IMG/VR virus record: IMGVR_UViG_651053022_000004
Location: 14,440 to 78,439 of that record
Strand: one strand, 5' to 3'
Origin: a virus
Taxonomy: Duplodnaviria > Heunggongvirae > Uroviricota > Caudoviricetes
Length of the DNA: 64,000 nt
A model generated the notes under the pieces. That model was not told the DNA's origin. It did not search any database and worked only from the letters and a program-made list of their open reading frames with translations. Below are positions 11,204 to 20,796 of the stretch, piece by piece (position 1 is the first letter of the stretch; every line of letters starts with the position of its first letter). The translations under genes and the position numbers were made by a program.

Positions 11204-11619
11204 GTTTTGCCCTGAAACTGGCGCGTGAGATGGGGCGACCCGACTGGCGTGCCATGCTTGCCGGGATGTCATCCACGGAGTATGCCGACTGGCACCGCTT
11301 TTACAGTACCCATTATTTTCATGATGTTCTGCTGGATATGCACTTTTCCGGGCTGACGTACACCGTGCTCAGCCTGTTTTTCAGCGATCCGGATATGCAT
11401 CCGCTGGATTTCAGTCTGCTGAACCGGCGCGAGGCTGACGAAGAGCCTGAAGATGATGTGCTGATGCAGAAAGCGGCAGGGCTTGCCGGAGGTGTCCGCT
11501 TTGGCCCGGACGGGAATGAAGTTATCCCCGCTTCCCCGGATGTGGCGGACATGACGGAGGATGACGTAATGCTGATGACAGTATCAGAAGGGATCGCAGG
11601 AGGAGTCCGGTATGGCTGA
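11185..11619 (+). CDS. T: tail assembly protein T segment, expressed as a G-T fusion by -1 frameshift
   Basis: Slippery heptamer GGGAAAG at 11179-11185 near the 3' end of G; the -1 frame continues ...LSFALKLAREMGRPDWRAMLAGMSSTEYADWHRFY as in lambda gpGT. Confidence 0.88.
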   Translation: MFDGELSFALKLAREMGRPDWRAMLAGMSSTEYADWHRFYSTHYFHDVLLDMHFSGLTYTVLSLFFSDPDMHPLDFSLLNRREADEEPEDDVLMQKAAGLAGGVRFGPDGNEVIPASPDVADMTEDDVMLMTVSEGIAGGVRYG

Positions 11620-14173
11620 ACCGGTAGGCGATCTGGTCGTTGATTTGAGTCTGGATGCGGCCAGATTTGACGAGCAGATGGCCAGAGTCAGGCGTCATTT
11701 TTCCGGTACGGAAAGTGATGCGAAAAAAACAGCGGCAGTCGTTGAACAGTCGCTGAGCCGACAGGCGCTGGCTGCACAGAAAGCGGGGATTTCCGTCGGG
11801 CAGTATAAAGCCGCCATGCGTATGCTGCCTGCACAGTTCACCGACGTGGCCACGCAGCTTGCAGGCGGGCAAAGTCCGTGGCTGATCCTGCTGCAACAGG
11901 GGGGGCAGGTGAAGGACTCCTTCGGCGGGATGATCCCCATGTTCAGGGGGCTTGCCGGTGCGATCACCCTGCCGATGGTGGGGGCCACCTCGCTGGCGGT
12001 GGCGACCGGTGCGCTGGCGTATGCCTGGTATCAGGGCAACTCAACCCTGTCCGATTTCAACAAAACGCTGGTCCTTTCCGGCAATCAGGCGGGTCTGACG
12101 GCAGATCGTATGCTGGTCCTGTCCAGAGCCGGGCAGGCGGCAGGGCTGACGTTTAACCAGACCAGCGAGTCACTCAGCGCACTGGTTAAGGCGGGGGTAA
12201 GCGGTGAGGCTCAGATTGCGTCCATCAGCCAGAGTGTGGCGCGTTTCTCCTCTGCATCCGGCGTGGAGGTGGACAAGGTCGCTGAAGCCTTCGGGAAGCT
12301 GACCACAGACCCGACGTCGGGGCTGACGGCGATGGCACGCCAGTTCCATAACGTGACGGCGGAGCAGATTGCGTATGTTGCTCAGTTGCAGCGTTCCGGC
12401 GATGAAGCCGGGGCATTGCAGGCGGCGAACGAGGCCGCAACGAAAGGGTTTGATGACCAGACCCGCCGCCTGAAAGAGAACATGGGCACGCTGGAGACCT
12501 GGGCAGACAGGACTGCGCGGGCATTCAAATCCATGTGGGATGCGGTGCTGGATATTGGTCGTCCTGATACCGCGCAGGAGATGCTGATTAAGGCAGAGGC
12601 TGCGTTTAAGAAAGCAGACGACATCTGGAATCTGCGCAAGGATGATTATTTTGTTAACGATGAAGCGCGGGCGCGTTACTGGGATGATCGTGAAAAGGCC
12701 CGTCTTGCGCTTGAAGCCGCCCGAAAGAAGGCTGAACAGCAGAGTCAACAGGACAAAAATGCGCAGCAGCAGAGCGATACCGAAGCGTCACGGCTGAAAT
12801 ATACCGAAGAGGCGCAGAAGGCTTACGAACGGCTGCAGACGCCGCTGGAGAAATATGCCGCCCGTCAGGAAGAACTGAATAAGGCCCTGAAAGACGGAAA
12901 AATCCTGCAGGCAGATTACAACACGCTGATGGCGGCAGCGAAAAAGGACTATGAAACGACACTGAAAAAGCCGAAGCAGTCCGGCGTGAAGGTGTCTGCG
13001 GGCGATCGTCAGGAAGACAGTGCTCATGCTGCCCTGCTGACGCTTCAGGCTGAACTCCGGACGCTGGAGAAGCATGCCGGAGCAAATGAGAAAATCAGCC
13101 AGCAGCGCCGGGATTTGTGGAAGGCGGAGAGTCAGTTCGCGGTACTGGAGGAGGCGGCGCAACGTCGCCAGCTGTCTGTACAGGAGAAATCCCTGCTGGC
13201 GCATAAAGATGAGACGCTGGAGTACAAACGCCAGCTGGCTGCACTTGGCGACAAGGTTACGTATCAGGAGCGCCTGAACGCGCTGGCGCAGCAGGCGGAT
13301 AAATTCGCACAGCAGCAACGGGCAAAACGGGCCGCCATTGATGCGAAAAGCCGGGGGCTGACTGACCGGCAGGCAGAACGGGAAGCCACGGAACAGCGCC
13401 TGAAGGAACAGTATGGCGATAATCCGCTGGCGCTGAATAACGTCATGTCAGAGCAGAAAAAGACCTGGGCGGCTGAAGACCAGCTTCGCGGGAACTGGAT
13501 GGCAGGCCTGAAGTCCGGCTGGAGTGAGTGGGAAGAGAGCGCCACGGACAGTATGTCGCAGGTAAAAAGTGCAGCCACGCAGACCTTTGATGGTATTGCA
13601 CAGAATATGGCGGCGATGCTGACCGGCAGTGAGCAGAACTGGCGCAGCTTCACCCGTTCCGTGCTGTCCATGATGACAGAAATTCTGCTTAAGCAGGCAA
13701 TGGTGGGGATTGTCGGGAGTATCGGCAGCGCCATTGGCGGGGCTGTTGGTGGCGGCGCATCCGCGTCAGGCGGTACAGCCATTCAGGCCGCTGCGGCGAA
13801 ATTCCATTTTGCAACCGGAGGATTTACGGGAACCGGCGGCAAATATGAGCCAGCGGGGATTGTTCACCGTGGTGAGTTTGTCTTCACGAAGGAGGCAACC
13901 AGCCGGATTGGCGTGGGGAATCTTTACCGGCTGATGCGCGGCTATGCCACCGGCGGTTATGTCGGTACACCGGGCAGCATGGCAGACAGCCGGTCGCAGG
14001 CGTCCGGGACGTTTGAGCAGAATAACCATGTGGTGATTAACAACGACGGCACGAACGGGCAGATAGGTCCGGCTGCTCTGAAGGCGGTGTATGACATGGC
14101 CCGCAAGGGTGCCCGTGATGAAATTCAGACACAGATGCGTGATGGTGGCCTGTTCTCCGGAGGTGGACGATGA
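11612..14173 (+). CDS. H: tail tape measure protein H
   Basis: 853 aa, same length and start (MAEPVGDLVVDLSLDAARFDEQMARV) as lambda gpH. Confidence 0.97.
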   Translation: MAEPVGDLVVDLSLDAARFDEQMARVRRHFSGTESDAKKTAAVVEQSLSRQALAAQKAGISVGQYKAAMRMLPAQFTDVATQLAGGQSPWLILLQQGGQVKDSFGGMIPMFRGLAGAITLPMVGATSLAVATGALAYAWYQGNSTLSDFNKTLVLSGNQAGLTADRMLVLSRAGQAAGLTFNQTSESLSALVKAGVSGEAQIASISQSVARFSSASGVEVDKVAEAFGKLTTDPTSGLTAMARQFHNVTAEQIAYVAQLQRSGDEAGALQAANEAATKGFDDQTRRLKENMGTLETWADRTARAFKSMWDAVLDIGRPDTAQEMLIKAEAAFKKADDIWNLRKDDYFVNDEARARYWDDREKARLALEAARKKAEQQSQQDKNAQQQSDTEASRLKYTEEAQKAYERLQTPLEKYAARQEELNKALKDGKILQADYNTLMAAAKKDYETTLKKPKQSGVKVSAGDRQEDSAHAALLTLQAELRTLEKHAGANEKISQQRRDLWKAESQFAVLEEAAQRRQLSVQEKSLLAHKDETLEYKRQLAALGDKVTYQERLNALAQQADKFAQQQRAKRAAIDAKSRGLTDRQAEREATEQRLKEQYGDNPLALNNVMSEQKKTWAAEDQLRGNWMAGLKSGWSEWEESATDSMSQVKSAATQTFDGIAQNMAAMLTGSEQNWRSFTRSVLSMMTEILLKQAMVGIVGSIGSAIGGAVGGGASASGGTAIQAAAAKFHFATGGFTGTGGKYEPAGIVHRGEFVFTKEATSRIGVGNLYRLMRGYATGGYVGTPGSMADSRSQASGTFEQNNHVVINNDGTNGQIGPAALKAVYDMARKGARDEIQTQMRDGGLFSGGGR

Positions 14174-14499
14174 AGACCTTCCGCTGGAAAGTGAAACCCG
14201 GTATGGATGTGGCTTCGGTCCCTTCTGTAAGAAAGGTGCGCTTTGGTGATGGCTATTCTCAGCGAGCGCCTGCCGGGCTGAATGCCAACCTGAAAACGTA
14301 CAGCGTGACGCTTTCTGTCCCCCGTGAGGAGGCCACGGTACTGGAGTCGTTTCTGGAAGAGCACGGGGGCTGGAAATCCTTTCTGTGGACGCCGCCTTAT
14401 GAGTGGCAGCAGATAAAGGTGACCTGCGCAAAATGGTCGTCGCGGGTCAGTATGCTGCGTGTTGAGTTCAGCGCAGAGTTTGAACAGGTGGTGAACTGA
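14170..14499 (+). CDS. M: minor tail protein M
   Basis: 109 aa, MKTFRWKVKPGMDVASVPSVRKVRFGDGY; lambda gpM. Confidence 0.95.
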   Translation: MKTFRWKVKPGMDVASVPSVRKVRFGDGYSQRAPAGLNANLKTYSVTLSVPREEATVLESFLEEHGGWKSFLWTPPYEWQQIKVTCAKWSSRVSMLRVEFSAEFEQVVN

Positions 14500-15197
14500 T
14501 GCAGGATATCCGGCAGGAAACACTGAATGAATGCACCCGTGCGGAGCAGTCGGCCAGCGTGGTGCTCTGGGAAATCGACCTGACAGAGGTCGGTGGAGAA
14601 CGTTATTTTTTCTGTAATGAGCAGAACGAAAAAGGTGAGCCGGTCACCTGGCAGGGGCGACAGTATCAGCCGTATCCCATTCAGGGGAGCGGTTTTGAAC
14701 TGAATGGCAAAGGCACCAGTACGCGCCCCACGCTGACGGTTTCTAACCTGTACGGTATGGTCACCGGGATGGCGGAAGATCTGCAGAGTCTGGTCGGCGG
14801 AACGGTGGTCCGGCGTAAGGTTTACGCCCGTTTTCTGGATGCGGTGAACTTCGTCAACGGAAACAGTTATGCCGATCCGGAGCAGGAGGTGATCAGCCGC
14901 TGGCGCATTGAGCAGTGCAGCGAACTGAGCGCGGTGAGTGCCTCCTTTGTACTGTCCACGCCGACGGAAACGGATGGCGCTGTTTTTCCGGGACGTATCA
15001 TGCTGGCCAACACCTGCACCTGGACCTATCGCGGTGACGAGTGCGGTTATAGCGGTCCGGCTGTCGCGGATGAATATGACCAGCCAACGTCCGATATCAC
15101 GAAGGATAAATGCAGCAAATGCCTGAGCGGTTGTAAGTTCCGCAATAACGTCGGCAACTTTGGCGGCTTCCTTTCCATTAACAAACTTTCGCAGTAA
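14499..15197 (+). CDS. L: minor tail protein L
   Basis: 232 aa; lambda gpL including the C-terminal cysteine cluster. Confidence 0.95.
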   Translation: MQDIRQETLNECTRAEQSASVVLWEIDLTEVGGERYFFCNEQNEKGEPVTWQGRQYQPYPIQGSGFELNGKGTSTRPTLTVSNLYGMVTGMAEDLQSLVGGTVVRRKVYARFLDAVNFVNGNSYADPEQEVISRWRIEQCSELSAVSASFVLSTPTETDGAVFPGRIMLANTCTWTYRGDECGYSGPAVADEYDQPTSDITKDKCSKCLSGCKFRNNVGNFGGFLSINKLSQ

Positions 15198-15201
15198 TCC
15201 C

Positions 15202-15630
15202 ATGACACAGACAGAATCAGCGATTCTGGCGCACGCCCGGCGATGTGCGCCAGCGGAGTCGTGTGGCTTCGTGGTGAGAACGCCGAAGGGGGAAAGATAT
15301 TTTCCCTGCGTGAATATCTCCGGTGAGCCGGAGGCGTATTTCCGGATGTCGCCGGAGGACTGGCTGCGGGCAGAGATGCAGGGTGAGATTGTGGCGCTGG
15401 TCCACAGCCACCCCGGTGGTCTGCCCTGGCTGAGTGAGGCTGACAGGCGGCTGCAGGTGCAGAGTGATTTGCCGTGGTGGCTGGTCTGCCGGGGGGCGAT
15501 TCATAAGTTCCGCTGTGTGCCGCATCTTACCGGGCGGCGCTTTGAGCACGGGGTGACGGACTGTTACACGCTGTTCCGGGATGCTTATCATCTGGCGGGG
15601 ATAAACCATAGAGCAGAATTATTTTTCTGA
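15202..15630 (+). pseudogene. K: tail tip protein K, truncated after about residue 134 by a sequence discontinuity
   Basis: MTQTESAILAHARRCAPAESCGFV... follows lambda gpK up to ...DCYTLFRDAYHLAGI (nt 15603), then reads NHRAELFF-stop into AT-rich unrelated sequence. Confidence 0.85.
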
Positions 15631-15798
15631 TGTTGTTTATTGTTTATTTAAATGCAGGGTGGTTTATATCTCGTCTTGTAGTTTATCCATGCATATCTGC
15701 TTGATAATCAGGTTTTTATTTAAGGTATGGTTTTGTGTTTTTTCTGTATTACATGTCAGGTATTTTAAAGAATCATTTTTCAGATGGTGGAAAGAACC

Positions 15799-15987
15799 AT
15801 GGCATTTAAACACTATGATGTTGTCAGGGCGGCGTCGCCGTCAGATCTTGCGGAAAAGCTGACACATAAACTGAAAGAGGGCTGGCAGCCGTTTGGTAGT
15901 CCGGTGGCCATAACCCCTTATACCCTGATGCAGGCGATTGCAGCAGAAGGTGATGTGGTGGTCAGTGGTGCAACTGAGCCGGAGTGA
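15799..15987 (+). CDS. small hypothetical protein upstream of the lysis cassette
   Basis: 62 aa from ATG 15799 (MAFKHYDVVRAASPSDLAEKL...), purine-rich stretch upstream; no family assignment. Confidence 0.4.
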   Translation: MAFKHYDVVRAASPSDLAEKLTHKLKEGWQPFGSPVAITPYTLMQAIAAEGDVVVSGATEPE

Positions 15988-16229
15988 TACTACGTCATCG
16001 TACTGGCCCGGCATTCTAGGCCATAAAGGACAGTCTGGCAGTGGGACTAAATGCACTGACGCTGACGGATATTACCAAAAATGCAACGTATGGCGTTGAG
16101 ATAGAAAGTCTGGTGCTGGAGATAAATGTACCGGCATCATCATAAAAAGTGAGCCAGTCAAATGGAAGGTATCGTTAAACTCACCGGTAGTGTCAGTGGG
16201 TCGTCTGAGATGCCTGCATGAGTTATCAG

Positions 16230-16262
16230 AGCCATCAGTACTTAACTGGTGGCTTTTTTTAT
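16230..16262 (+). terminator. intrinsic terminator upstream of the holin, tR'-like position
   Basis: Stem agccatcag / ctggtggct with one G-U pair, 7-nt loop, followed by T7. Confidence 0.5.
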
Positions 16263-16295
16263 TGTTGTCAGCTTCCGGATAACGGGAGACGGGGT

Positions 16296-16511
16296 ATGGA
16301 CCAGATGGAAAAAATCACAACAGGTGTGTCATACACCACGTCAGCGGTGGGAACGGGCTACTGGTTCCTGCAGTTGCTGGACAGGGTTTCCCCGTCTCAG
16401 TGGGCGGCAATAGGCGTGCTGGGGAGTCTGCTGTTTGGGCTGCTGACATATCTGACTAACCTGTATTTCAAAATCAGAGAGGACCGTCGTAAGGCGGCAC
16501 GGGGAGAGTAA
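16296..16511 (+). CDS. class II holin (pinholin), phage 21 S21 family
   Basis: 71 aa [71 protein letters not shown]; dual-start M1/M4 motif; close to S21 as recalled; RBS GGGAGACGGGG upstream. Confidence 0.85.
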
Positions 16512-16515
16512 TTCA

Positions 16516-16866
16516 ATGACTCAAAACTATGAACTGATTGTGAAAGGGATCCGCAATTTTGAGAATAAAGTTACGGTAACTTTAGCGTTACGGGACAAAA
16601 AACGCTTTGACGGTGAAATTTTTGACCTGGACATCTCGCTGGACCGTGTTGAAGGTGCCGCGCTGGAGTTTTATGAGGCAGCAGCCAGAAGGAGCATCAG
16701 ACAGGTCTTCCTGGATGTTGCTGCCGCGTTATGTGAAGGGGATGAGCAGTCGCCGGAAAAGCGCCCCGTAATTTTAGAGGCGCAGAATGTATGGATAACC
16801 TACAAAGGAAAGCTACCGGGAAGAATTACTGGTTCTCTGAAGACTCCTCCGGAATCACAACCTTAA
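16516..16866 (+). CDS. holin-adjacent protein, possibly YdfR/DUF1327-like, with an aberrant C-terminus read from repeat copy A
   Basis: 116 aa MTQNYELIVKGIRNFENKVTVTLALRDKKRFDGEIFDLDISLDRVEGAALEFYEAAARRS...; sits between holin and lysozyme as ydfR does in Qin; last ~38 codons are encoded by the 16748-16860 repeat. Confidence 0.55.
   Translation: MTQNYELIVKGIRNFENKVTVTLALRDKKRFDGEIFDLDISLDRVEGAALEFYEAAARRSIRQVFLDVAAALCEGDEQSPEKRPVILEAQNVWITYKGKLPGRITGSLKTPPESQP
16748..16860. repeat. copy A of a ~113-bp imperfect direct repeat (copy B at 17652-17765)
   Basis: agtcgccggaaaagcgccccgtaattttagaggcgcag...ctaccgggaa..aatta..ggttctctgaaga occurs twice, 904 bp apart, about 88% identical. Confidence 0.85.
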
Positions 16867-16895: not shown

Positions 16896-17428
16896 GTGGG
16901 GCAAAAATCAGATACGGCCTGTCGGCTGCCGTTCTGGCACTGATTGCCGTCGGTGCGCCCGCGCCTGATATTCTCGACCAGTTTCTGGATGAAAAAGAAG
17001 GTAACCACACAACGGCATACCGCGATGGGTCCGGCATCTGGACCATCTGTCGGGGGGCCACGATGGTGGATGGAAAACCCGTTTTTCCCGGTATGAAACT
17101 GTCGAAGGAAAAATGCGACCAGGTCAACGCCATTGAGCGTGATAAGGCGCTGGCATGGGTGGAGCGCAATATTAAAGTACCACTGACCGAACCACAAAAA
17201 GCGGGTATAGCGTCATTCTGTCCCTATAACATTGGCCCCGGTAAGTGTTTCCCGTCGACGTTTTATAAGCGGCTGAATGCCGGTGATCGTAAGGGCGCAT
17301 GCGAGGCGATTCGCTGGTGGATAAAAGATGGTGGGCGCGATTGCCGCATACGTTCAAATAACTGCTATGGACAGGTTATTCGTCGTGACCAGGAAAGCGC
17401 ATTAGCCTGTTGGGGGATAGAGCAGTGA
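16896..17428 (+). pseudogene. SAR endolysin (lysozyme), 5'-truncated copy without start codon
   Basis: Reads (..)KIRYGLSAAVLALIAVGAPAPDILDQFLDEKEGNHTTAYRDG... in frame but nothing precedes KIRYG; the first in-frame ATG (17063) would lack the conserved E-D-T N-terminal region; about 90% identical to the intact copy at 18108. Confidence 0.75.
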
Positions 17429-17829
17429 GCAGAGTCGCCGCGATTATTTATGCTTTGGTTATCTGCATCATCGTCTGCCTGTCGTGGGCGGTCAATCATT
17501 ACCGTGATAACGCCATCGCCTACAAAGAACAGCGTGATAAAAAAGTCAGTGAGCTGAAGCAGTCGATCGCCACCATCGCTGACATGCAGCAGCGTCAGCG
17601 TGATGTTGCTGCACTCGATGCAAAGTACTCGAGAGAATTAGCCAATGCGAAAGTCGCCGGAAAAGCGCCCCGTAATTTTAGAGGCGCAGGATGTGTTGAT
17701 AACCTACAGAGGAAAACTACCGGGAATAATTACGGGTTCTCTGAAGAGTCCGCCGAAATGGTAATTTTACCAGCATATTTTTCATCCAGTAATACAGCAA
17801 GCCGCCTGAAAGAGTCTTGTTGTTCCTGA
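17410..17829 (+). pseudogene. Rz i-spanin N-terminal fragment fused to repeat copy B
   Basis: ...[75 protein letters not shown] matches the first half of the intact Rz at 19284, then runs into the 17652-17765 repeat. Confidence 0.65.
17652..17765. repeat. copy B of the ~113-bp imperfect direct repeat
   Basis: See copy A at 16748-16860. Confidence 0.85.
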
Positions 17830-18002
17830 GACCATTTGGGATTGCATGATTCAAACTGGATTGATGCCAGCGTTGATTGCATCTGTTCCCTTGGAATTGA
17901 GAATGCCAGATATGAGAAGGCGACGGTAAGGGTATTCACGTCTTCCCGAAGCCTGGAAATGCTGTCGAGCAACTCCTGTAGAGAAATGGTGTTATTGTCC
18001 AT
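17730..18002 (-). CDS. hypothetical protein, antisense to the lysis genes
   Basis: 90 aa [29 protein letters not shown]...; strong RBS (GAGGA, 6-nt spacer) before the ATG at 18002; 3' end overlaps repeat copy B. Confidence 0.4.
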
Positions 18003-18107
18003 AAATAATCCTCATGATTGTATTGACCTGTTAGCAGCCTGAGGCAACAGGCTGGAACTGATAAACATATCCAGGGCTCAGAAACCGATAAATCCTGATA
18101 AATATCC

Positions 18108-18641
18108 ATGAACGCAAAAATCAGATACGGCCTGTCGGCTGCCGTTCTGGCGCTGATTGCCGCTGGTGCGCCTGCGCCTGACATTCTCGACCAGTTTCTG
18201 GATGAAAAGGAAGGTAACCACACCACGGCATACCGTGATGGCGCGGGTATCTGGACCATCTGCCGCGGTGCCATCCTGGTGGATGGCAAACCTGTCGTTC
18301 CGGGCATGAAGTTGTCGAAGGAAAAATGCGACCGGGTTAACGCCATTGAGCGTGATAAGGCGCTGGCATGGGTGGAGAAAAACATCAAAGTGCCATTGAC
18401 CGAACCCCAGAAAGCGGGGATCGCGTCATTCTGTCCGTACAACATTGGTCCCGGTAAGTGTTTCCCGTCGACGTTTTACAGACGAATTAATGCAGGTGAT
18501 CGCAGGGGAGCATGCGAAGCGATTCGCTGGTGGATTAAGGACGGTGGCAGAGACTGCCGTATTCGCTCAAATAACTGTTACGGTCAGGTATTCCGTCGTG
18601 ACCAGGAGAGCGCGCTGGCGTGCTGGGGAATCGACAGATAA
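18108..18641 (+). CDS. SAR endolysin (lysozyme), Qin RrrQ-like
   Basis: 177 aa MNAKIRYGLSAAVLALIAAGAPAPDILDQFLDEKEGNHTTAYRDGAGIWTICRG...; weakly hydrophobic Gly/Ala-rich N-terminal SAR segment; closely resembles E. coli Qin prophage lysozyme as recalled. Confidence 0.9.
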   Translation: MNAKIRYGLSAAVLALIAAGAPAPDILDQFLDEKEGNHTTAYRDGAGIWTICRGAILVDGKPVVPGMKLSKEKCDRVNAIERDKALAWVEKNIKVPLTEPQKAGIASFCPYNIGPGKCFPSTFYRRINAGDRRGACEAIRWWIKDGGRDCRIRSNNCYGQVFRRDQESALACWGIDR

Positions 18642-18835
18642 GCAGAATATTTTGCTGAAAAATGAGGTTGGCCAACGCGGGCGGATAACACGAAGTCCTG
18701 TGAACTGGCAAAACCTAAGTGAATAAAAGTAAAAACCCCGTTTGTTGGCAGCAAGCGGGGTTTTGTTTTTATGGCAGTAAGCTATGGGAGGCTGCCTTGA
18801 TTGATTTTAGCAAACTGATTAGGGAGTTGCGACTC

Positions 18836-18931
18836 ATGATTAGTCAATTACCAAACTGGAAATTTTTGCTGGTCTGGAGCATCCCTTTTTTATGGGTAGT
18901 ATCCCAGTTAATTGTGGCAATTAAGGGGTAG
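18836..18931 (+). CDS. small hydrophobic peptide P0 (31 aa)
   Basis: MISQLPNWKFLLVWSIPFLWVVSQLIVAIKG; RBS AGGGAG upstream; stop lies 2 nt before the next start. Confidence 0.35.
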   Translation: MISQLPNWKFLLVWSIPFLWVVSQLIVAIKG

Positions 18932-18933
18932 CT

Positions 18934-19065
18934 ATGTCAGACAAACTCATAACGCCGGCAAAGGTCCTGTGTGTGATTGTCGGTATTTCATTTTCACTAA
19001 TGCTGGTTGCTCTTTTTCTGTCCCTCGCCTGGGTGATGTTGTCTTCGTCGGGGCTGCTGGGGTGA
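18934..19065 (+). CDS. small hydrophobic peptide P1 (43 aa)
   Basis: MSDKLITPAKVLCVIVGISFSLMLVALFLSLAWVMLSSSGLLG; RBS AAGGGG 5 nt upstream; one predicted TM helix. Confidence 0.45.
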   Translation: MSDKLITPAKVLCVIVGISFSLMLVALFLSLAWVMLSSSGLLG

Positions 19066-19184
19066 CAGTGACTGATGACATCAGCAGAGCGCTGGCTTTT
19101 GCTATTAAGTGGGTGGCTGTTGGTATTGCTGTGTCTCCGATGCTGTATGGGCTGGCAAAACTGGTCATTGCGCTGAAATCGTGA
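19062..19184 (+). CDS. small hydrophobic peptide P2 (40 aa), GTG start overlapping P1 stop
   Basis: (M)[39 protein letters not shown]; GTGA start/stop overlap with P1. Confidence 0.4.
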   Translation: MTVTDDISRALAFAIKWVAVGIAVSPMLYGLAKLVIALKS

Positions 19185-19282
19185 ACTTTAAAAAGATGAG
19201 TGCTGAACTTATTCGGGCAATGGCATTTGCCATTCGTATTGTGGCCATTGCTGTTCTGGTCTGGGCAATCCGTTGGTGGTGA
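19181..19282 (+). CDS. small hydrophobic peptide P3 (33 aa), GTG start overlapping P2 stop
   Basis: (M)[32 protein letters not shown]; paralogous to P2 (ALAFAIKWVAVGIAV vs [15 protein letters not shown]); stop 1 nt before the Rz ATG. Confidence 0.4.
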
Positions 19283-19283
19283 T

Positions 19284-19778
19284 ATGAACCGTGTTCTGTG
19301 TGTGGTGATTATTGTCATGCTGGTAGCCTGTGGTGTGCTTAGTCTGGGGCTGAATCATTACCGCGATAACGCCATCACCTACAAAGCGCAGCGCGATAAA
19401 AAAGTCAGTGAGCTGAAACTGGCGAATGCCACTATTACTGACATGCAGCAGCGCCAGCGAGATGTCGCTGCGCTTGATGCCAGATACACGAAGGAATTAG
19501 CCGATGCGAGAGCTGAAAATGAAACTCTGCGCGCTGATGTTGCCGCTGGTCGTAAGCGCCTGCGGGTCAACGCCACCTGCCCCGGTACCGTGCGTGAAGC
19601 CACCGGCACCTCCAGCGTGGATAATGCAACCGGCCCCCGACTGGCAGACACCGCTGAACGGGATTATTTCATCCTCAGAGAACGGTTGATGACAATGCAG
19701 AAGCAGCTGGAAGGGGCGCAGGAATATATCCGCACTCAGTGCACTAAGCTGGCTTTTTATTATCCGGAGGATACATGA
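19284..19778 (+). CDS. i-spanin Rz
   Basis: 164 aa from ATG 19284, [45 protein letters not shown]...; N-terminal TM helix plus coiled coil, lambda Rz-like. Confidence 0.88.
19504..19689 (+). CDS. o-spanin Rz1 lipoprotein, embedded in Rz in the +1 frame
   Basis: [61 protein letters not shown]; lipobox VVSAC and proline-rich body as in lambda Rz1. Confidence 0.85.
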
Positions 19779-19990
19779 AGAAATTACGGGTAACCGTAGA
19801 ACCTTTTCAGGGAACAATTCCGTTCCGTATTTTGCAGCGTGGTCGTGTTCTTGTTGAAGGTTCGTTCAGTGGTAAATGTACGCAATTACACTCCCGGACC
19901 TTTCAGGTGAATGCCACGAATGAAGAGCTAACCGTGGAGTGTACGATGAATGCCGCTAAATGCCGCATGGTATTACAGCCAGTGTGTTGA
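19775..19990 (+). CDS. hypothetical protein, start overlapping the Rz stop
   Basis: 71 aa [31 protein letters not shown]...; ATGA overlap with the Rz stop; no family assignment. Confidence 0.4.
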
Positions 19991-20188
19991 GCGACCTTAT
20001 TATCCATGCGCGGTATTGTCGCCGTATTCCTGCATTAACAGAGACCGCAGCCCGACAGGGAGACTCCTCTGCGCGAGTGTGCGGGGATAATCAAAAACGA
20101 TACACACCGGGGTTTACCGCGTTAACGGAGCGCGGCGTTGTCCCCTCATAGTCGCCTGTCCGGTGCGATGGTGGAAGAAACCGAACGT

Positions 20189-20389
20189 TCATTTCTCGTT
20201 ATTTGTCATGCTGGCCGGGCGCAGATGCGTTGCATCTGTTGCCAGCCTTCTCCTGCAGGCTTCAATAACCCACGCTGAAAAGTTACCGGACCCTTTATGC
20301 TCAAGGGCGATGTTGATCTGTTCAATTATGTGATTGGGGAAACGGATATTGCGGGTTGTGGTTCTGCGGGTCCGGTTTTTCGATGACAT
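20189..20389 (-). CDS. small ribbon-helix-helix-like DNA-binding protein
   Basis: 66 aa from ATG 20389, MSSKNRTRRTTTRNIRFPNHIIEQINIALEHKGSGNFSAWVIEACRRRL; RBS AAGGAAA upstream; basic N-tail then beta-strand and helix pattern. Confidence 0.5.
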   Translation of the reverse strand: MSSKNRTRRTTTRNIRFPNHIIEQINIALEHKGSGNFSAWVIEACRRRLATDATHLRPASMTNNEK

Positions 20390-20430
20390 ATTTATTTCCT
20401 TTACTGATTGCCATATGACGGGGATTTTAC

Positions 20431-20796
20431 ATGGCTGAGCTTCGTACACTCCAGAGCAGAATCAAAACACTGAATACCCGACGGGTGAATATTCTGAAGG
20501 GGGAGCAGCGTCGTGTCAGTGGCAGTGCACGTGTTTCCCTCAAGCGTCATATCTGGCTGAGGGACGCCGGGCAGTGCTGTATCTGTGGTCGTGTGGTTGA
20601 CCTCTGTGACAGTGAACTCGATCACCGAATTGCACTTCAGTTCGGTGGTGGTAATGAGGAGACGAATCTTTGGACGCTCTGTGCCGAATGCCATCGACAA
20701 AAGTCTGCTCGTGAAGCGGCGAGTGGTATGCCGGACCCGACGCTGCCGGAGGTGTCCGGAGGTAGTGGCAGAGAGGACGACATCATCGGACTGTAA
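20431..20796 (+). CDS. HNH endonuclease (terminase-associated)
   Basis: 121 aa with CxxC...DHRIALQFGGGNEETNLWTLCAECHRQK HNH/zinc-finger motif, located just upstream of the terminase genes. Confidence 0.85.
   Translation: MAELRTLQSRIKTLNTRRVNILKGEQRRVSGSARVSLKRHIWLRDAGQCCICGRVVDLCDSELDHRIALQFGGGNEETNLWTLCAECHRQKSAREAASGMPDPTLPEVSGGSGREDDIIGL

Follow-up and report, generated by a model that had tools for sequence, protein, structure and literature searches.

Which genes, if any, separate the endolysin gene from the spanin genes in a phage lysis cassette? The lysis cassettes of lambdoid and Stx phages are treated as S, R and Rz/Rz1, for example in a survey of Stx phages (PMC8136144). In the 64,000-nucleotide stretch of Caudoviricetes DNA studied here (the window), a first-pass annotation had placed four tightly coupled open reading frames (ORFs) between R and Rz: P0 (ATG 18836 to TAG 18931, 31 aa), P1 (ATG 18934 to TGA 19065, 43 aa), P2 (GTG 19062 to TGA 19184, 40 aa) and P3 (GTG 19181 to TGA 19282, 33 aa). 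All four were reproduced, together with their stop-to-start distances of +2, -4 (GTGA), -4 (GTGA) and +1 nt. The array is outside the standard S/R/Rz/Rz1 set, as had been noted: in K-12 Qin, R overlaps Rz with nothing between, and in the truncated second cassette of the window R' (17063-17428) overlaps Rz' (17410-) with no insert. The features of the region are as follows.

18108..18641, + strand: R, SAR-type endolysin, 177-aa ORF (Pfam PF00959 Phage_lysozyme, E=9e-24)
18732..18770, + strand: intrinsic terminator hairpin from a terminator scan, with an A-tract, a 9-bp GC-rich stem and a T-tract
18797..18931, + strand: P0, predicted 44-aa single-pass membrane peptide, most likely with a TTG start; the 31-aa ORF from ATG 18836 is its C-terminal part
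18934..19065, + strand: P1, strongly hydrophobic, predicted single-pass 43-aa peptide (ATG; Shine-Dalgarno (SD) sequence AAGGGG, dG -8.4)
19062..19184, + strand: P2', copy from the 60-aa P2 family with a truncated N-terminus (GTG 19062 or 19068, overlapping the P1 stop)
19181..19282, + strand: P3, short P2 paralogue (GTG 19181, 33 aa; or ATG 19196, 28 aa)
19284..19778, + strand: Rz, i-spanin (PF03245, E=4e-51), with its ATG (19284) 1 nt past the P3 stop
19504-19689, embedded in Rz: Rz1, 61-aa ORF with the lipobox LVVSAC

Each peptide has a single hydrophobic segment, in agreement with the first-pass annotation. The Kyte-Doolittle mean over a 19-residue window was 1.9-2.9 (2.87 for P1), compared with 2.97 for the transmembrane domain (TMD) of Rz and 1.74 for the SAR domain of R, whose N-terminus (MNAKIRYGLSAAVLALIAAGA) is weakly hydrophobic. 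Only 2-13 residues follow the TMDs of P0-P3. Single-pass inner-membrane peptides are our best inference for the products from these sequences. A coupled four-ORF chain appeared by chance in 27 of 3000 dinucleotide shuffles.

Conservation of the reading frames in related prophages, on which the first-pass annotation had made its proposal depend, was found together with an excess of synonymous changes. The 80 loci from our first IMG/VR scan were nearly identical, which left too little variation to test for selection; all 78 window-type arrays were 97-100% identical, implying recent spread. No relatives were found in GTDB species representatives scanned with the P2 alignment, and an exhaustive HMM search gave 20 representative clusters only. 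For P0, P1 and P2, the annotated frame had the lowest pN/pS among all six frames, while the other + strand frames had pooled dN/dS of at least 0.65. The pooled pN/pS of P0 was 0.12-0.14 (single pairs, P=6e-8 to 1e-4). For P1, dN/dS was about 0.33, against 0.83 and 1.56 in the other frames (divergent single pair, P=0.004). The P2 core had a dN/dS of 0.18, with 14:3:27 variable sites at the three codon positions (divergent pair, window versus Salmonella, P=5e-7), and P3 had a dN/dS of 0.36 (divergent pair, window versus locus L135, P=0.018). The frames were intact nearly everywhere, with 1-2 disrupted among about 82-84 instances per peptide. Minus-strand frames were frequently open across the array, and a 123-aa antisense ORF (18947-19318) was considered as a true gene and rejected; in no test did the signal of the best minus frame reach that of the + frame, which fits a third-position shadow of the + frame. 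Very probably, therefore, the interval 18797-19282 contains four genuine mini-genes.

The start of P0 is most likely TTG 18797, 39 nt 5' of ATG 18836. This TTG has the SD sequence GGGAGG 5 nt upstream (dG -10.2 kcal/mol, in the top 1.2% of start triplets of the window), and the 44-aa ORF begins with ATG or GTG in other phages. Differences within the N-terminal extension were 8 synonymous versus 2 non-synonymous. The stretch upstream of ATG 18836 was also considered as a remnant of the 3' end of ant; it has just about 12-15 nt in common with 933W ant and makes better sense as conserved coding sequence for the N-terminus of P0. In existing annotations P0 is mostly missing or has a wrong start.

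The four peptides derive from two or three small families, namely P0, P1 and P2/P3. P0 matched the HMM of phrog_6632 (E=6e-5), P1 that of phrog_4906 (E=4.5e-21) and P3 that of phrog_4493 (E=4.4e-7). The C-terminal 38 residues of P2' matched phrog_1115 (E=6.4e-25), which a full-length 60-aa relative covered over the entire profile (2.9e-42). All PHROG families matched by P0-P3 are labelled 'unknown function', and Pfam and NCBIfam searches with the peptides, toxin families included, gave zero matches. The paralogy of P2 and P3 asserted in the first-pass annotation was upheld by BLASTP (E=6e-4), by matches of both to phrog_4493 and phrog_3246, and by natural intermediates such as MKNGLKLEAP...AFAIRLISIAIFIWAIRWW. 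The C-terminus said to be common to P0 and P2 could be recovered (PFLWVVSQLIVAIK versus PMLYGLAKLIIALK, E=0.002), lending the claim weak support.

P2 and P3 both come from a single 38-60-aa family, of which they are copies with a shortened N-terminus. For P2 the norm is 60 aa with a strong SD; P2' is without the N-terminal 20-22 residues and has a moderate SD only (-5 to -6 kcal/mol). For the 60-aa form, AF2 gave a basic N-terminal helix (3-15) followed by a single 35-residue helix (25-59), two helices alone that make the fold uninformative. The existing annotation of P2 uses a CTG start with no ribosome-binding site there. For P3, the start may be ATG 19196 (28 aa), as in PGAP (WP_032140280.1). 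Its last codons double as the Rz ribosome-binding site; the Rz SD, GGTGGTGA, is of moderate strength. Given the N-terminal truncation and the weak or moderate SDs, P2' and P3 could be decaying copies.

P1 (PGAP accession WP_001280935.1) has a homologue in 933W-type phages that is XECs191, which differs from the 933W ORF preceding Rz in the start residue alone. In E. coli O157:H7 Sakai grown in LB, Ribo-seq gave XECs191 a translatome RPKM of 12.6 and a coverage of 0.55, and its product was predicted to be in the inner membrane with one TM helix (PMC5597208). This signal was low and came from uninduced cultures. As a candidate duplicate of the N-terminal TMD of Rz, P1 was rejected (BLASTP E=0.28).

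The terminator upstream of P0 is conserved as well. The same hairpin lies 5' of P0 or P2 in SAR-lysozyme, GH108, M15 and Providencia cassettes. Among 13 variants, 92% of the cells pair, with compensatory changes at 3 pairs, and the covariation score was 0.291 versus 0.125 in shuffles, a value that 0 of 500 shuffles reached. A simple consensus scan found no + strand promoter-like site in 18000-20300, and Rfam had no match at E<=1 in the R-P0 spacer and the array. The cassette of the window, whose holin matched PF04971 (E=9e-33), is a chimera with tail genes, not Q, in front of it, so its expression in this window is uncertain.

Together, P0-P3 make up a mobile module that is accessory to enterobacterial lysis cassettes. 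More than 250 loci have the module between the endolysin gene and the next envelope gene, whose start is -7 to +11 nt from the final stop of the module; in all cases the conserved hairpin terminator that follows the endolysin gene is directly upstream of the module. The composition of the module varies (P0-P1, P2-P1, P2, P1 alone and others): PhiR5_1 (PV340545), a plaque-forming relative, has the order ant-P0-P1-P2'-P3-Rz, and PhiR12 phages have P2-P1. Beside it are at least three unrelated holin families (PF04971, PF16080 and PF16931+PF05449) and five endolysin types (PF00959, GH108, M15_4, GH19 and, weakly, CHAP). The gene after it is usually the i-spanin gene Rz (PF03245), otherwise a non-PF03245 i-spanin-like gene or a small, 60-aa lipoprotein gene. 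Hosts are Escherichia, Salmonella and Providencia, and 1862 of 5426 complete E. coli genomes (34%) matched part of the module. The module is dispensable, judging from its absence in Qin and from a frameshifted P1 in 8 IMG/VR loci. The independence of the module from the holin, endolysin and spanin families speaks against an antiholin or releasin specific to one partner and requires a mechanism that is generic. A specific spanin-modulating role, one of the first-pass suggestions, is weakened because two unrelated i-spanin types and a small lipoprotein follow the same peptides.

The module probably belongs to the late lysis unit. We detected no promoter from the terminator to P0, which leads us to propose that it would be transcribed solely on the Q-antiterminated late transcript, with the holin, endolysin and spanin genes. 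P0 and P1 would be translated from their own SD sites, and P2', P3 and Rz mostly by termination-reinitiation over the 1-4-nt junctions. The peptides would then enter the inner membrane and most likely modulate a membrane step of lysis, either the triggering of the holin or pinholin, or the membrane energisation that leads to release of the SAR endolysin. As a putative class, antiholin-like or otherwise lysis-modulating membrane peptides are the most plausible assignment. We hold the whole model, late-expressed single-pass inner-membrane accessory lysis peptides that tune lysis timing, tentatively, at slightly under an even chance, and a lysis-modulating function taken by itself is a possibility to which we give a little less weight.

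A bolder version, which we consider unlikely, is that the peptides are a new plug-in class of single-TMD lysis micro-proteins that is independent of partner family. They might set the lysis clock by disturbing the energisation of the membrane or a host membrane target that is conserved, and the upstream terminator would confine their synthesis to Q antitermination. In phiP27-like phages, P1 might act from the inner membrane as the partner of a minimal system of outer-membrane disruption based on a lipoprotein.

Among the alternatives to lysis tuning, the peptides might be 'moron' membrane proteins that benefit the lysogen through superinfection exclusion or a change of the host membrane, separately from lysis. 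The R-Rz site is a known insertion spot and carries an antirepressor gene in Stx phages and PhiR5_1. The GC content of the array (0.46; P0, 0.385) is below that of R (0.55) and Rz (0.54), and its presence varies, with R overlapping Rz in Qin and in the second cassette of the window. Transcripts and footprints of XECs191 in uninduced cultures also fit this explanation, but they could come from spontaneous induction. The consensus scan gave no promoter-like site in the terminator-to-P0 interval, and the terminator is 5' rather than 3' of the genes, the last of which runs into Rz; a terminator at this position would block lysogenic expression rather than allow it. Moreover, the genes are on the late strand and tightly chained to Rz. 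We regard the moron explanation as improbable.

About equally improbable is that the array is recombination debris, a recent composite of a P0-P1 unit and truncated P2/P3 pieces, in which at least P2' and P3 are non-functional here. P2' begins right at a junction past the P1 stop (GGGGTGA|CAGTGACTGATGAC); compared with the 60-aa norm, its basic N-terminus of 20-22 residues is gone. P3 has no MKNGLxLxAP N-terminus as in full-length relatives, the 78 nearly uniform window-type arrays point to recent spread, and the window contains both a second, truncated cassette and a junction of chimeric origin. Against debris stand the intact frames in nearly all copies, the full length of P0 and P1, and short forms with their own ATG (MSAELIR..., MNAELLR..., MSADFIR...) in many contigs.

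The ORFs could instead serve as a translational relay that carries ribosomes past the terminator-interrupted R to Rz, the peptides being incidental. Such a relay would restore the R-Rz coupling of lambda and Qin, where R overlaps Rz in Qin as in the truncated cassette. The last peptide stop is close to the next start in every architecture (-7 to +11 nt), and the 'RWW*' C-terminus of P3 and of one P0 variant is the Rz ribosome-binding site TGGTGGTGA read as codons. Yet the purifying selection on amino acids far exceeds what the upkeep of starts and stops would need, and family-specific motifs persist across genera in the three families. A single short ORF would be enough, but arrays of 2-4 are kept, and Rz has a moderate SD of its own. 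We therefore give the relay somewhat less credence than the two preceding explanations.

A role in the outer-membrane step, with a P1-type peptide as the inner-membrane partner of Rz or of the phiP27-like 60-aa lipoprotein in spanin-like disruption, appears quite unlikely. P1 is the commonest neighbour of the downstream gene and has a 7-nt overlap with the lipoprotein start in more than 40 loci; cassettes such as that of locus L086 have no Rz call, phiP27 has no annotated Rz, and the phiP27 lipoprotein is catalogued among the o-spanins, its periplasmic domains being the shortest known (PMC6139136). The roughly 8-11 residues of P1 past its TMD and the roughly 30 of the mature lipoprotein nevertheless seem too few to bridge the periplasm, phiP27 itself carries the lipoprotein without any P peptide, P1 is unlike the Rz N-terminus, and the window already has a complete Rz/Rz1.

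Another first-pass suggestion, type I toxin-like peptides, taken here to be silenced by an antisense RNA, is very improbable. The peptides are short and hydrophobic, and P2 and P3 each have a basic residue embedded in the segment, but their genes are part of a coupled operon and do not stand alone. A crude consensus scan gave no + strand promoter-like site for them, neither Rfam nor the NCBIfam/Pfam toxin families matched, and the sole antisense promoter-like site (minus strand, 18940-18911) is weak, 1 being found versus a shuffle mean of 2.2.

Lysis tuning remains the preferred reading. Whatever their role, these are conserved, selected membrane micro-proteins inside well-studied lambdoid and Stx cassettes, 933W included, and they reveal annotation errors in the starts or omission of P0 and in the CTG start of P2. 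If the peptides do tune lysis, they would influence when cells burst and, through this, Shiga-toxin release and phage spread, and they would offer a compact, genetically tractable model for the control of holin triggering by a single TM helix.

Known antiholins include lambda S107, S21-71, phage P2 LysA and T4 RI; LysA is much larger than the array peptides. The array has the lysis-cassette location of this class, in the endolysin-spanin interval in all architectures. Searches with Pfam, NCBIfam, lambda S and S21-like hhalign revealed no kinship, in sequence or in domains, with a characterised antiholin or the cognate holin. The first-pass idea of relics of duplicated holin TM segments gained no support: P2 and P3 as relics of lambda S TM1 gave E=1.9, and the weak likeness of the P2 TMD to TMD2 of pinholin S21 (pairwise E=0.005) was not significant between family profiles (hhalign E=0.15, probability 0.4%), so P2 as a TMD2 copy is not supported. 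Class II holins have two TMDs, whereas the array peptides have one hydrophobic segment and no match to PF04971 or PF16080.

The i-spanin Rz (PF03245) has a long periplasmic, mostly coiled-coil domain; the array peptides have a TMD without such a domain and are not i-spanins in a two-component system like that of phiP27. The phiP27 o-spanin of Kongari et al. 2018 is the 60-aa lipoprotein that replaces Rz after P2-P1 or P0-P1 arrays, and the listed phiP27 i-spanin ORF (20348-20542) is antisense to a 90-aa ORF and missing in relatives. XECs191 was described by Hücker et al. 2017 as a 'novel small gene' of E. coli O157:H7 Sakai, transcribed and ribosome-covered (PMC5597208). It is one entry in a genome-wide list there; the lysis-cassette context, paralogues and modular arrays are absent, and the main text does not use the word 'prophage'.

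The Mu releasin gp25 (DUF2730) is small and membrane-anchored, is encoded a few genes past the SAR endolysin and is required for SAR release (PMC9239132). The window likewise has a SAR-type endolysin. However, gp25 has 99 aa, an N-out/C-in topology and a 73-aa acidic cytoplasmic domain, whereas the array peptides have nearly no extramembrane domain, no Pfam match to DUF2730 and, in AF2, a 13-residue N-helix plus one long helix. Unlike gp25, they also occur beside GH108, M15 and GH19 endolysin genes.

Phage P2 lysA, an antiholin gene, lies between the endolysin gene K and the Rz-like lysB (PMC3091744). LysA resembles the array in its cassette position and as a non-essential late-lysis membrane protein, but it has four predicted TMDs (PMC3091744), while the array peptides have 28-60 aa and one TMD, occur in variable arrays and bear no sequence relation to it. 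Phage P1 has the gene for LydD in the operon of its SAR endolysin, and LydC and LydD are small membrane proteins that cooperate with one SAR endolysin, with an effect that depends on host and conditions (PMC9025707). The array peptides may likewise be dispensable factors for the timing or robustness of lysis, akin in role and position to phage P2 LysA or phage P1 LydC/LydD.

Between the endolysin gene R and the i-spanin gene Rz, the four small ORFs of the first-pass annotation were found in the sequence with exactly the extents and spacings described there:

18836-18931, plus strand, P0 as first annotated, 31 aa
18934-19065, plus strand, P1, 43 aa
19062-19184, plus strand, P2 (the window's copy, P2′), 40 aa, GTG start
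19181-19282, plus strand, P3, 33 aa, GTG start
19284, plus strand, ATG of Rz

The junctions P0/P1, P1/P2, P2/P3 and P3/Rz were +2, -4, -4 and +1 nt. When the region was shuffled 3000 times with dinucleotides preserved, 27 of the shuffles contained a chain of four ORFs of 25 aa or more spaced by -4 to +5 nt. The GC content of the array was 0.46 versus 0.54-0.55 in the flanks. Each peptide has one hydrophobic helix, detected as a single hydrophobic 19-residue window. On the Kyte-Doolittle scale P1 (2.87) was as hydrophobic as the Rz anchor (2.97), to which it is not related; P0, P2 and P3 scored 1.9-2.2, and K or R is embedded in the hydrophobic segment of P2 and P3.

IMG/VR, phage records and public assemblies supplied 258 related loci for an analysis of selection. 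For each peptide, pooled Nei-Gojobori dN/dS was calculated in the annotated frame and in the two other plus-strand frames:

P0 (three 44-aa variants), annotated 0.12; others 0.93 and 1.78
P1 (32 unique sequences), annotated 0.33; others 0.83 and 1.56
P2 core, annotated 0.18; others 0.65 and 14.8
P3, annotated 0.36; others 0.68 and 1.7

Pooled pN/pS for P0 was 0.14 over six variants, and the variable sites of the P2 core were distributed 14:3:27 over the codon positions. In single divergent pairs, which avoid pseudo-replication, the binomial P for synonymous excess was 6e-8 and 1e-6 for P0, 5e-7 for P2 (window versus Salmonella), 0.004-0.04 for P1 and 0.018 for P3 (one pair). In a six-frame comparison the annotated plus frame ranked first for P0, P1 and P2, and the minus-strand frame with which it shares third positions gave a weaker signal, as expected for a shadow. 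Frame conservation with synonymous excess in related prophages, the check proposed at first pass, was thus present for all four peptides. These substitution patterns indicate purifying selection, and the four ORFs are almost certainly real genes. XECs191 (MMGWLMISDKLITLVKSLCVLVGISFLVMLVAIFFSTAWRVLTLSGLVG), the 933W-type P1 homologue upstream of Rz, was listed in a ribosome-profiling study of O157:H7 Sakai, with a transcriptome RPKM of 30.0, a translatome RPKM of 12.6 and a coverage of 0.55 in LB, and was predicted to be an inner-membrane peptide having a single TM helix (PMC5597208). Its signal was modest, and the cultures were uninduced.

Comparison of relatives argues that P0 covers 18797-18931 (44 aa), not the 31 aa first annotated, because the residues upstream of the earlier ATG (IDFSKLIRELRLMI...) are common to all E. 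coli, Salmonella, Providencia and Cronobacter relatives, a Shine-Dalgarno site precedes the start in each form (ATG in locus L177, GTG in L181-L184, TTG at 18797 in the window), and codons 2-13 show 8 synonymous versus 2 non-synonymous differences. The window's site is GGGAGG; its dG with the anti-SD, -10.2 kcal/mol, ranks within the top 1.2% for all ATG/GTG/TTG triplets of the window. The norm of the P2 family is a 60-aa protein (MEKYKRILLRLTMKNGLELKAPVTDDISRAVAFAIKWVAVGIAVSPMLYGLAKLIIALKS) with a strong SD, matching phrog_1115 end to end (E=2.9e-42); its AF2 model has a helix at 3-15, a loop and one 35-residue helix (mean pLDDT 73.7). The window's P2 starts directly after the P1 stop and is without the family's basic N-terminus. 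PGAP annotates P1, gives P3 as 28 aa from ATG 19196 and omits P0; its P2, shared with RefSeq, has 51 aa (19029-19184) from a CTG start without an SD (+1.5 kcal/mol). Both this CTG start and the missing P0 are probably mistakes of annotation that have spread to about 1000 contigs.

The proposed paralogy of P2 and P3 holds: they form one family, in which P3 is a short paralogue bridged to P2 by intermediate database sequences such as MKNGLKLEAPENPEITQAAAFAIRLISIAIFIWAIRWW. The C-terminal likeness of P0 and P2, a common motif P-x-L-[WY]-x3-[QK]-L-I-x-A-[IL]-K, gave E=0.002 in one pairwise test and is suggestive only. Pfam and NCBIfam searches with the peptides gave no matches. The idea of a holin TM relic was not supported: P2 is unrelated to lambda S, and a pairwise likeness of P2 to pinholin TMD2 was lost at the profile level.

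A T5 run in P1 (19004-19008) is the point of divergence of frameshifted P1 variants (MSDKLITLAKILCVIVGISFSLMLVALRLDDVVFVG...), present in 8 IMG/VR loci. In the window the alternative frame is open into P2 (90-aa ORF, 18912-19184, the same length as phrog_3246), so that a slip there would join the P1 N-terminus to P2. At the other end, a 71-aa ORF at 19775-19990 (WP_000736382.1 in PGAP, hypothetical; no match in a Pfam search) starts within the Rz stop (ATGA overlap), so the translationally chained unit may extend beyond Rz.

The peptides behave as modules in lysis cassettes, in these architectures (ant, antirepressor gene):

P0-P1-P2′-P3-Rz, window type, 78 IMG/VR loci
ant-P0-P1-P2′-P3-Rz, PhiR5_1
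P0-P1-Rz
P0-P1-lipoprotein
P2-P1-Rz or P2-P1-lipoprotein, 81 loci
P2-Rz, Salmonella
ant-P1-Rz, 933W and many Stx phages
P2-P3-Rz
P0-P1-P2-P1b-Rz
P0-variant-Rz
P0 alone, then an Rz-like gene, Providencia

In the 78 window-type loci the array DNA was 97-100% identical, while identity of the flanking Rz dropped to 61%. Accompanying holins were PF04971, PF16080, and PF16931 with PF05449; endolysins were PF00959 (SAR lysozyme), GH108, peptidase M15_4, GH19 and CHAP (weak match). The gene 3′ of the module was PF03245 Rz, a 60-aa lipoprotein gene, or an i-spanin-like gene that falls outside PF03245 and has a lipoprotein ORF embedded in it. Fixed position, tight junctions and an upstream terminator characterize the module: the final peptide stop at -7 to +11 nt from the next gene's start and the hairpin just upstream (18732-18770 in the window) were invariant across architectures. 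The hairpin has equivalents directly after the endolysin gene in L086, L092, L177, L178 and L181, and its structure is kept across cassettes of different endolysins and genera. Stem pairing is kept by compensatory changes (92% of cells pair; pair 11-25 is seen as U-G, A-U, G-C, G-U and U-A), with a covariation of 0.291 versus 0.125 in shuffles, none of 500 reaching 0.291. Its A-tract and T-tract flanks suggest that this strong terminator, kept in mid-cassette, could act in both directions.

Part of the array was matched in 1862 of 5426 complete E. coli genomes and the whole in 589. Beyond Enterobacterales prophages the families are all but absent: 1.84 billion representatives, searched exhaustively by HMM, gave 20 clusters, and GTDB, scanned with a single genome for each species, gave no relative.

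Upstream of the array, a run of lambda-like tail genes (11612-15630; H, M, L and a truncated K) is followed by:

start near 16290, end 16511, plus strand, S21-type holin
16516-16866, plus strand, YdfR-family gene
17063-17428, plus strand, R′, an N-truncated endolysin gene
17410 to near 17650, plus strand, truncated Rz′, joined to a second YdfR 3′ end (17645-17764)
17730-18002, minus strand, 90-aa ORF between the YdfR-family gene and R

As first described, this truncated cassette has no insert between its endolysin and Rz genes: R′ overlaps Rz′, much as rrrQ overlaps rzpQ in K-12 Qin. The 90-aa ORF, unusual in an otherwise plus-strand cassette, is labelled 'DUF1823 containing protein' in PhiR5_1 and hypothetical in JJ1887, and phiP27 also has a 90-aa minus-strand ORF just 3′ of its endolysin gene. 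In GH108 and M15 cassettes, a 60-aa lipoprotein (phrog_7528, MKRKHWTHRMPRTAAKWALVAILVPFFLVGC...) stands in Rz's place after P2-P1 or P0-P1 (L086, 3301-3486; phiP27 NC_003356, 20679-20858); neither the L086 gene calls nor the phiP27 annotation includes an Rz. Kongari et al. listed it as the phiP27 o-spanin, with a partner i-spanin ORF at 20348-20542, which is antisense to a 90-aa ORF and not conserved in relatives.

From about 15602 the match is to a JJ1887 prophage at 2.166 Mb, that of the array region is to another JJ1887 prophage, at 1.456 Mb, and none of the complete E. coli genomes spans 14800-16600. The locus is therefore either a product of inter-prophage recombination or an assembly chimera. 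Since, in addition, no Q was seen upstream of the window's cassette, expression in this genome is not to be assumed.

A scan between the terminator and the peptide genes found no promoter-like site, so, as established lambdoid biology leads one to expect, the genes would be transcribed solely by Q-modified polymerase, sharing the late mRNA with S, R and Rz. P2′, P3 and Rz would be translated largely by reinitiation, and the peptides would be small inner-membrane proteins produced simultaneously with the holin. They are probably members of the late lysis unit. Co-timing with the holin, a position like that of lysA and the LydD parallel make tuning of the membrane step of lysis their most plausible role, although a function as lysis modulators is proposed only tentatively. 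Because the holins, endolysins and spanins that partner them are unrelated, any effect should be generic, on membrane energisation or a host target, and not partner-specific. Rival explanations are a moron that benefits the lysogen, a translational relay to Rz, recombination debris in the case of the truncated P2′ and P3, a partner in the outer-membrane step and a type I toxin.

The ORFs were already known as hypothetical proteins and PHROGs, all peptide forms being in public databases as 'hypothetical protein' and one in a Ribo-seq list. The literature examined did not describe them as a selected, modular part of lysis cassettes: a survey of Stx-phage lysis cassettes names only S, R and Rz/Rz1 (PMC8136144), and the prophage context of XECs191 is not mentioned in the main text of the Ribo-seq paper (PMC5597208). 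The peptides occupy the same cassette place as lysA, the antiholin gene of phage P2 (PMC3091744), and LydD of phage P1 is a comparable accessory protein, encoded in the endolysin (Lyz) operon (PMC9025707). The peptides, whose effect is expected to be generic, are in this way set apart from Mu releasin, a DUF2730 protein of 99 aa that has a cytoplasmic domain (PMC9239132). By these comparisons, the peptides would belong among the accessory membrane proteins of lysis cassettes.
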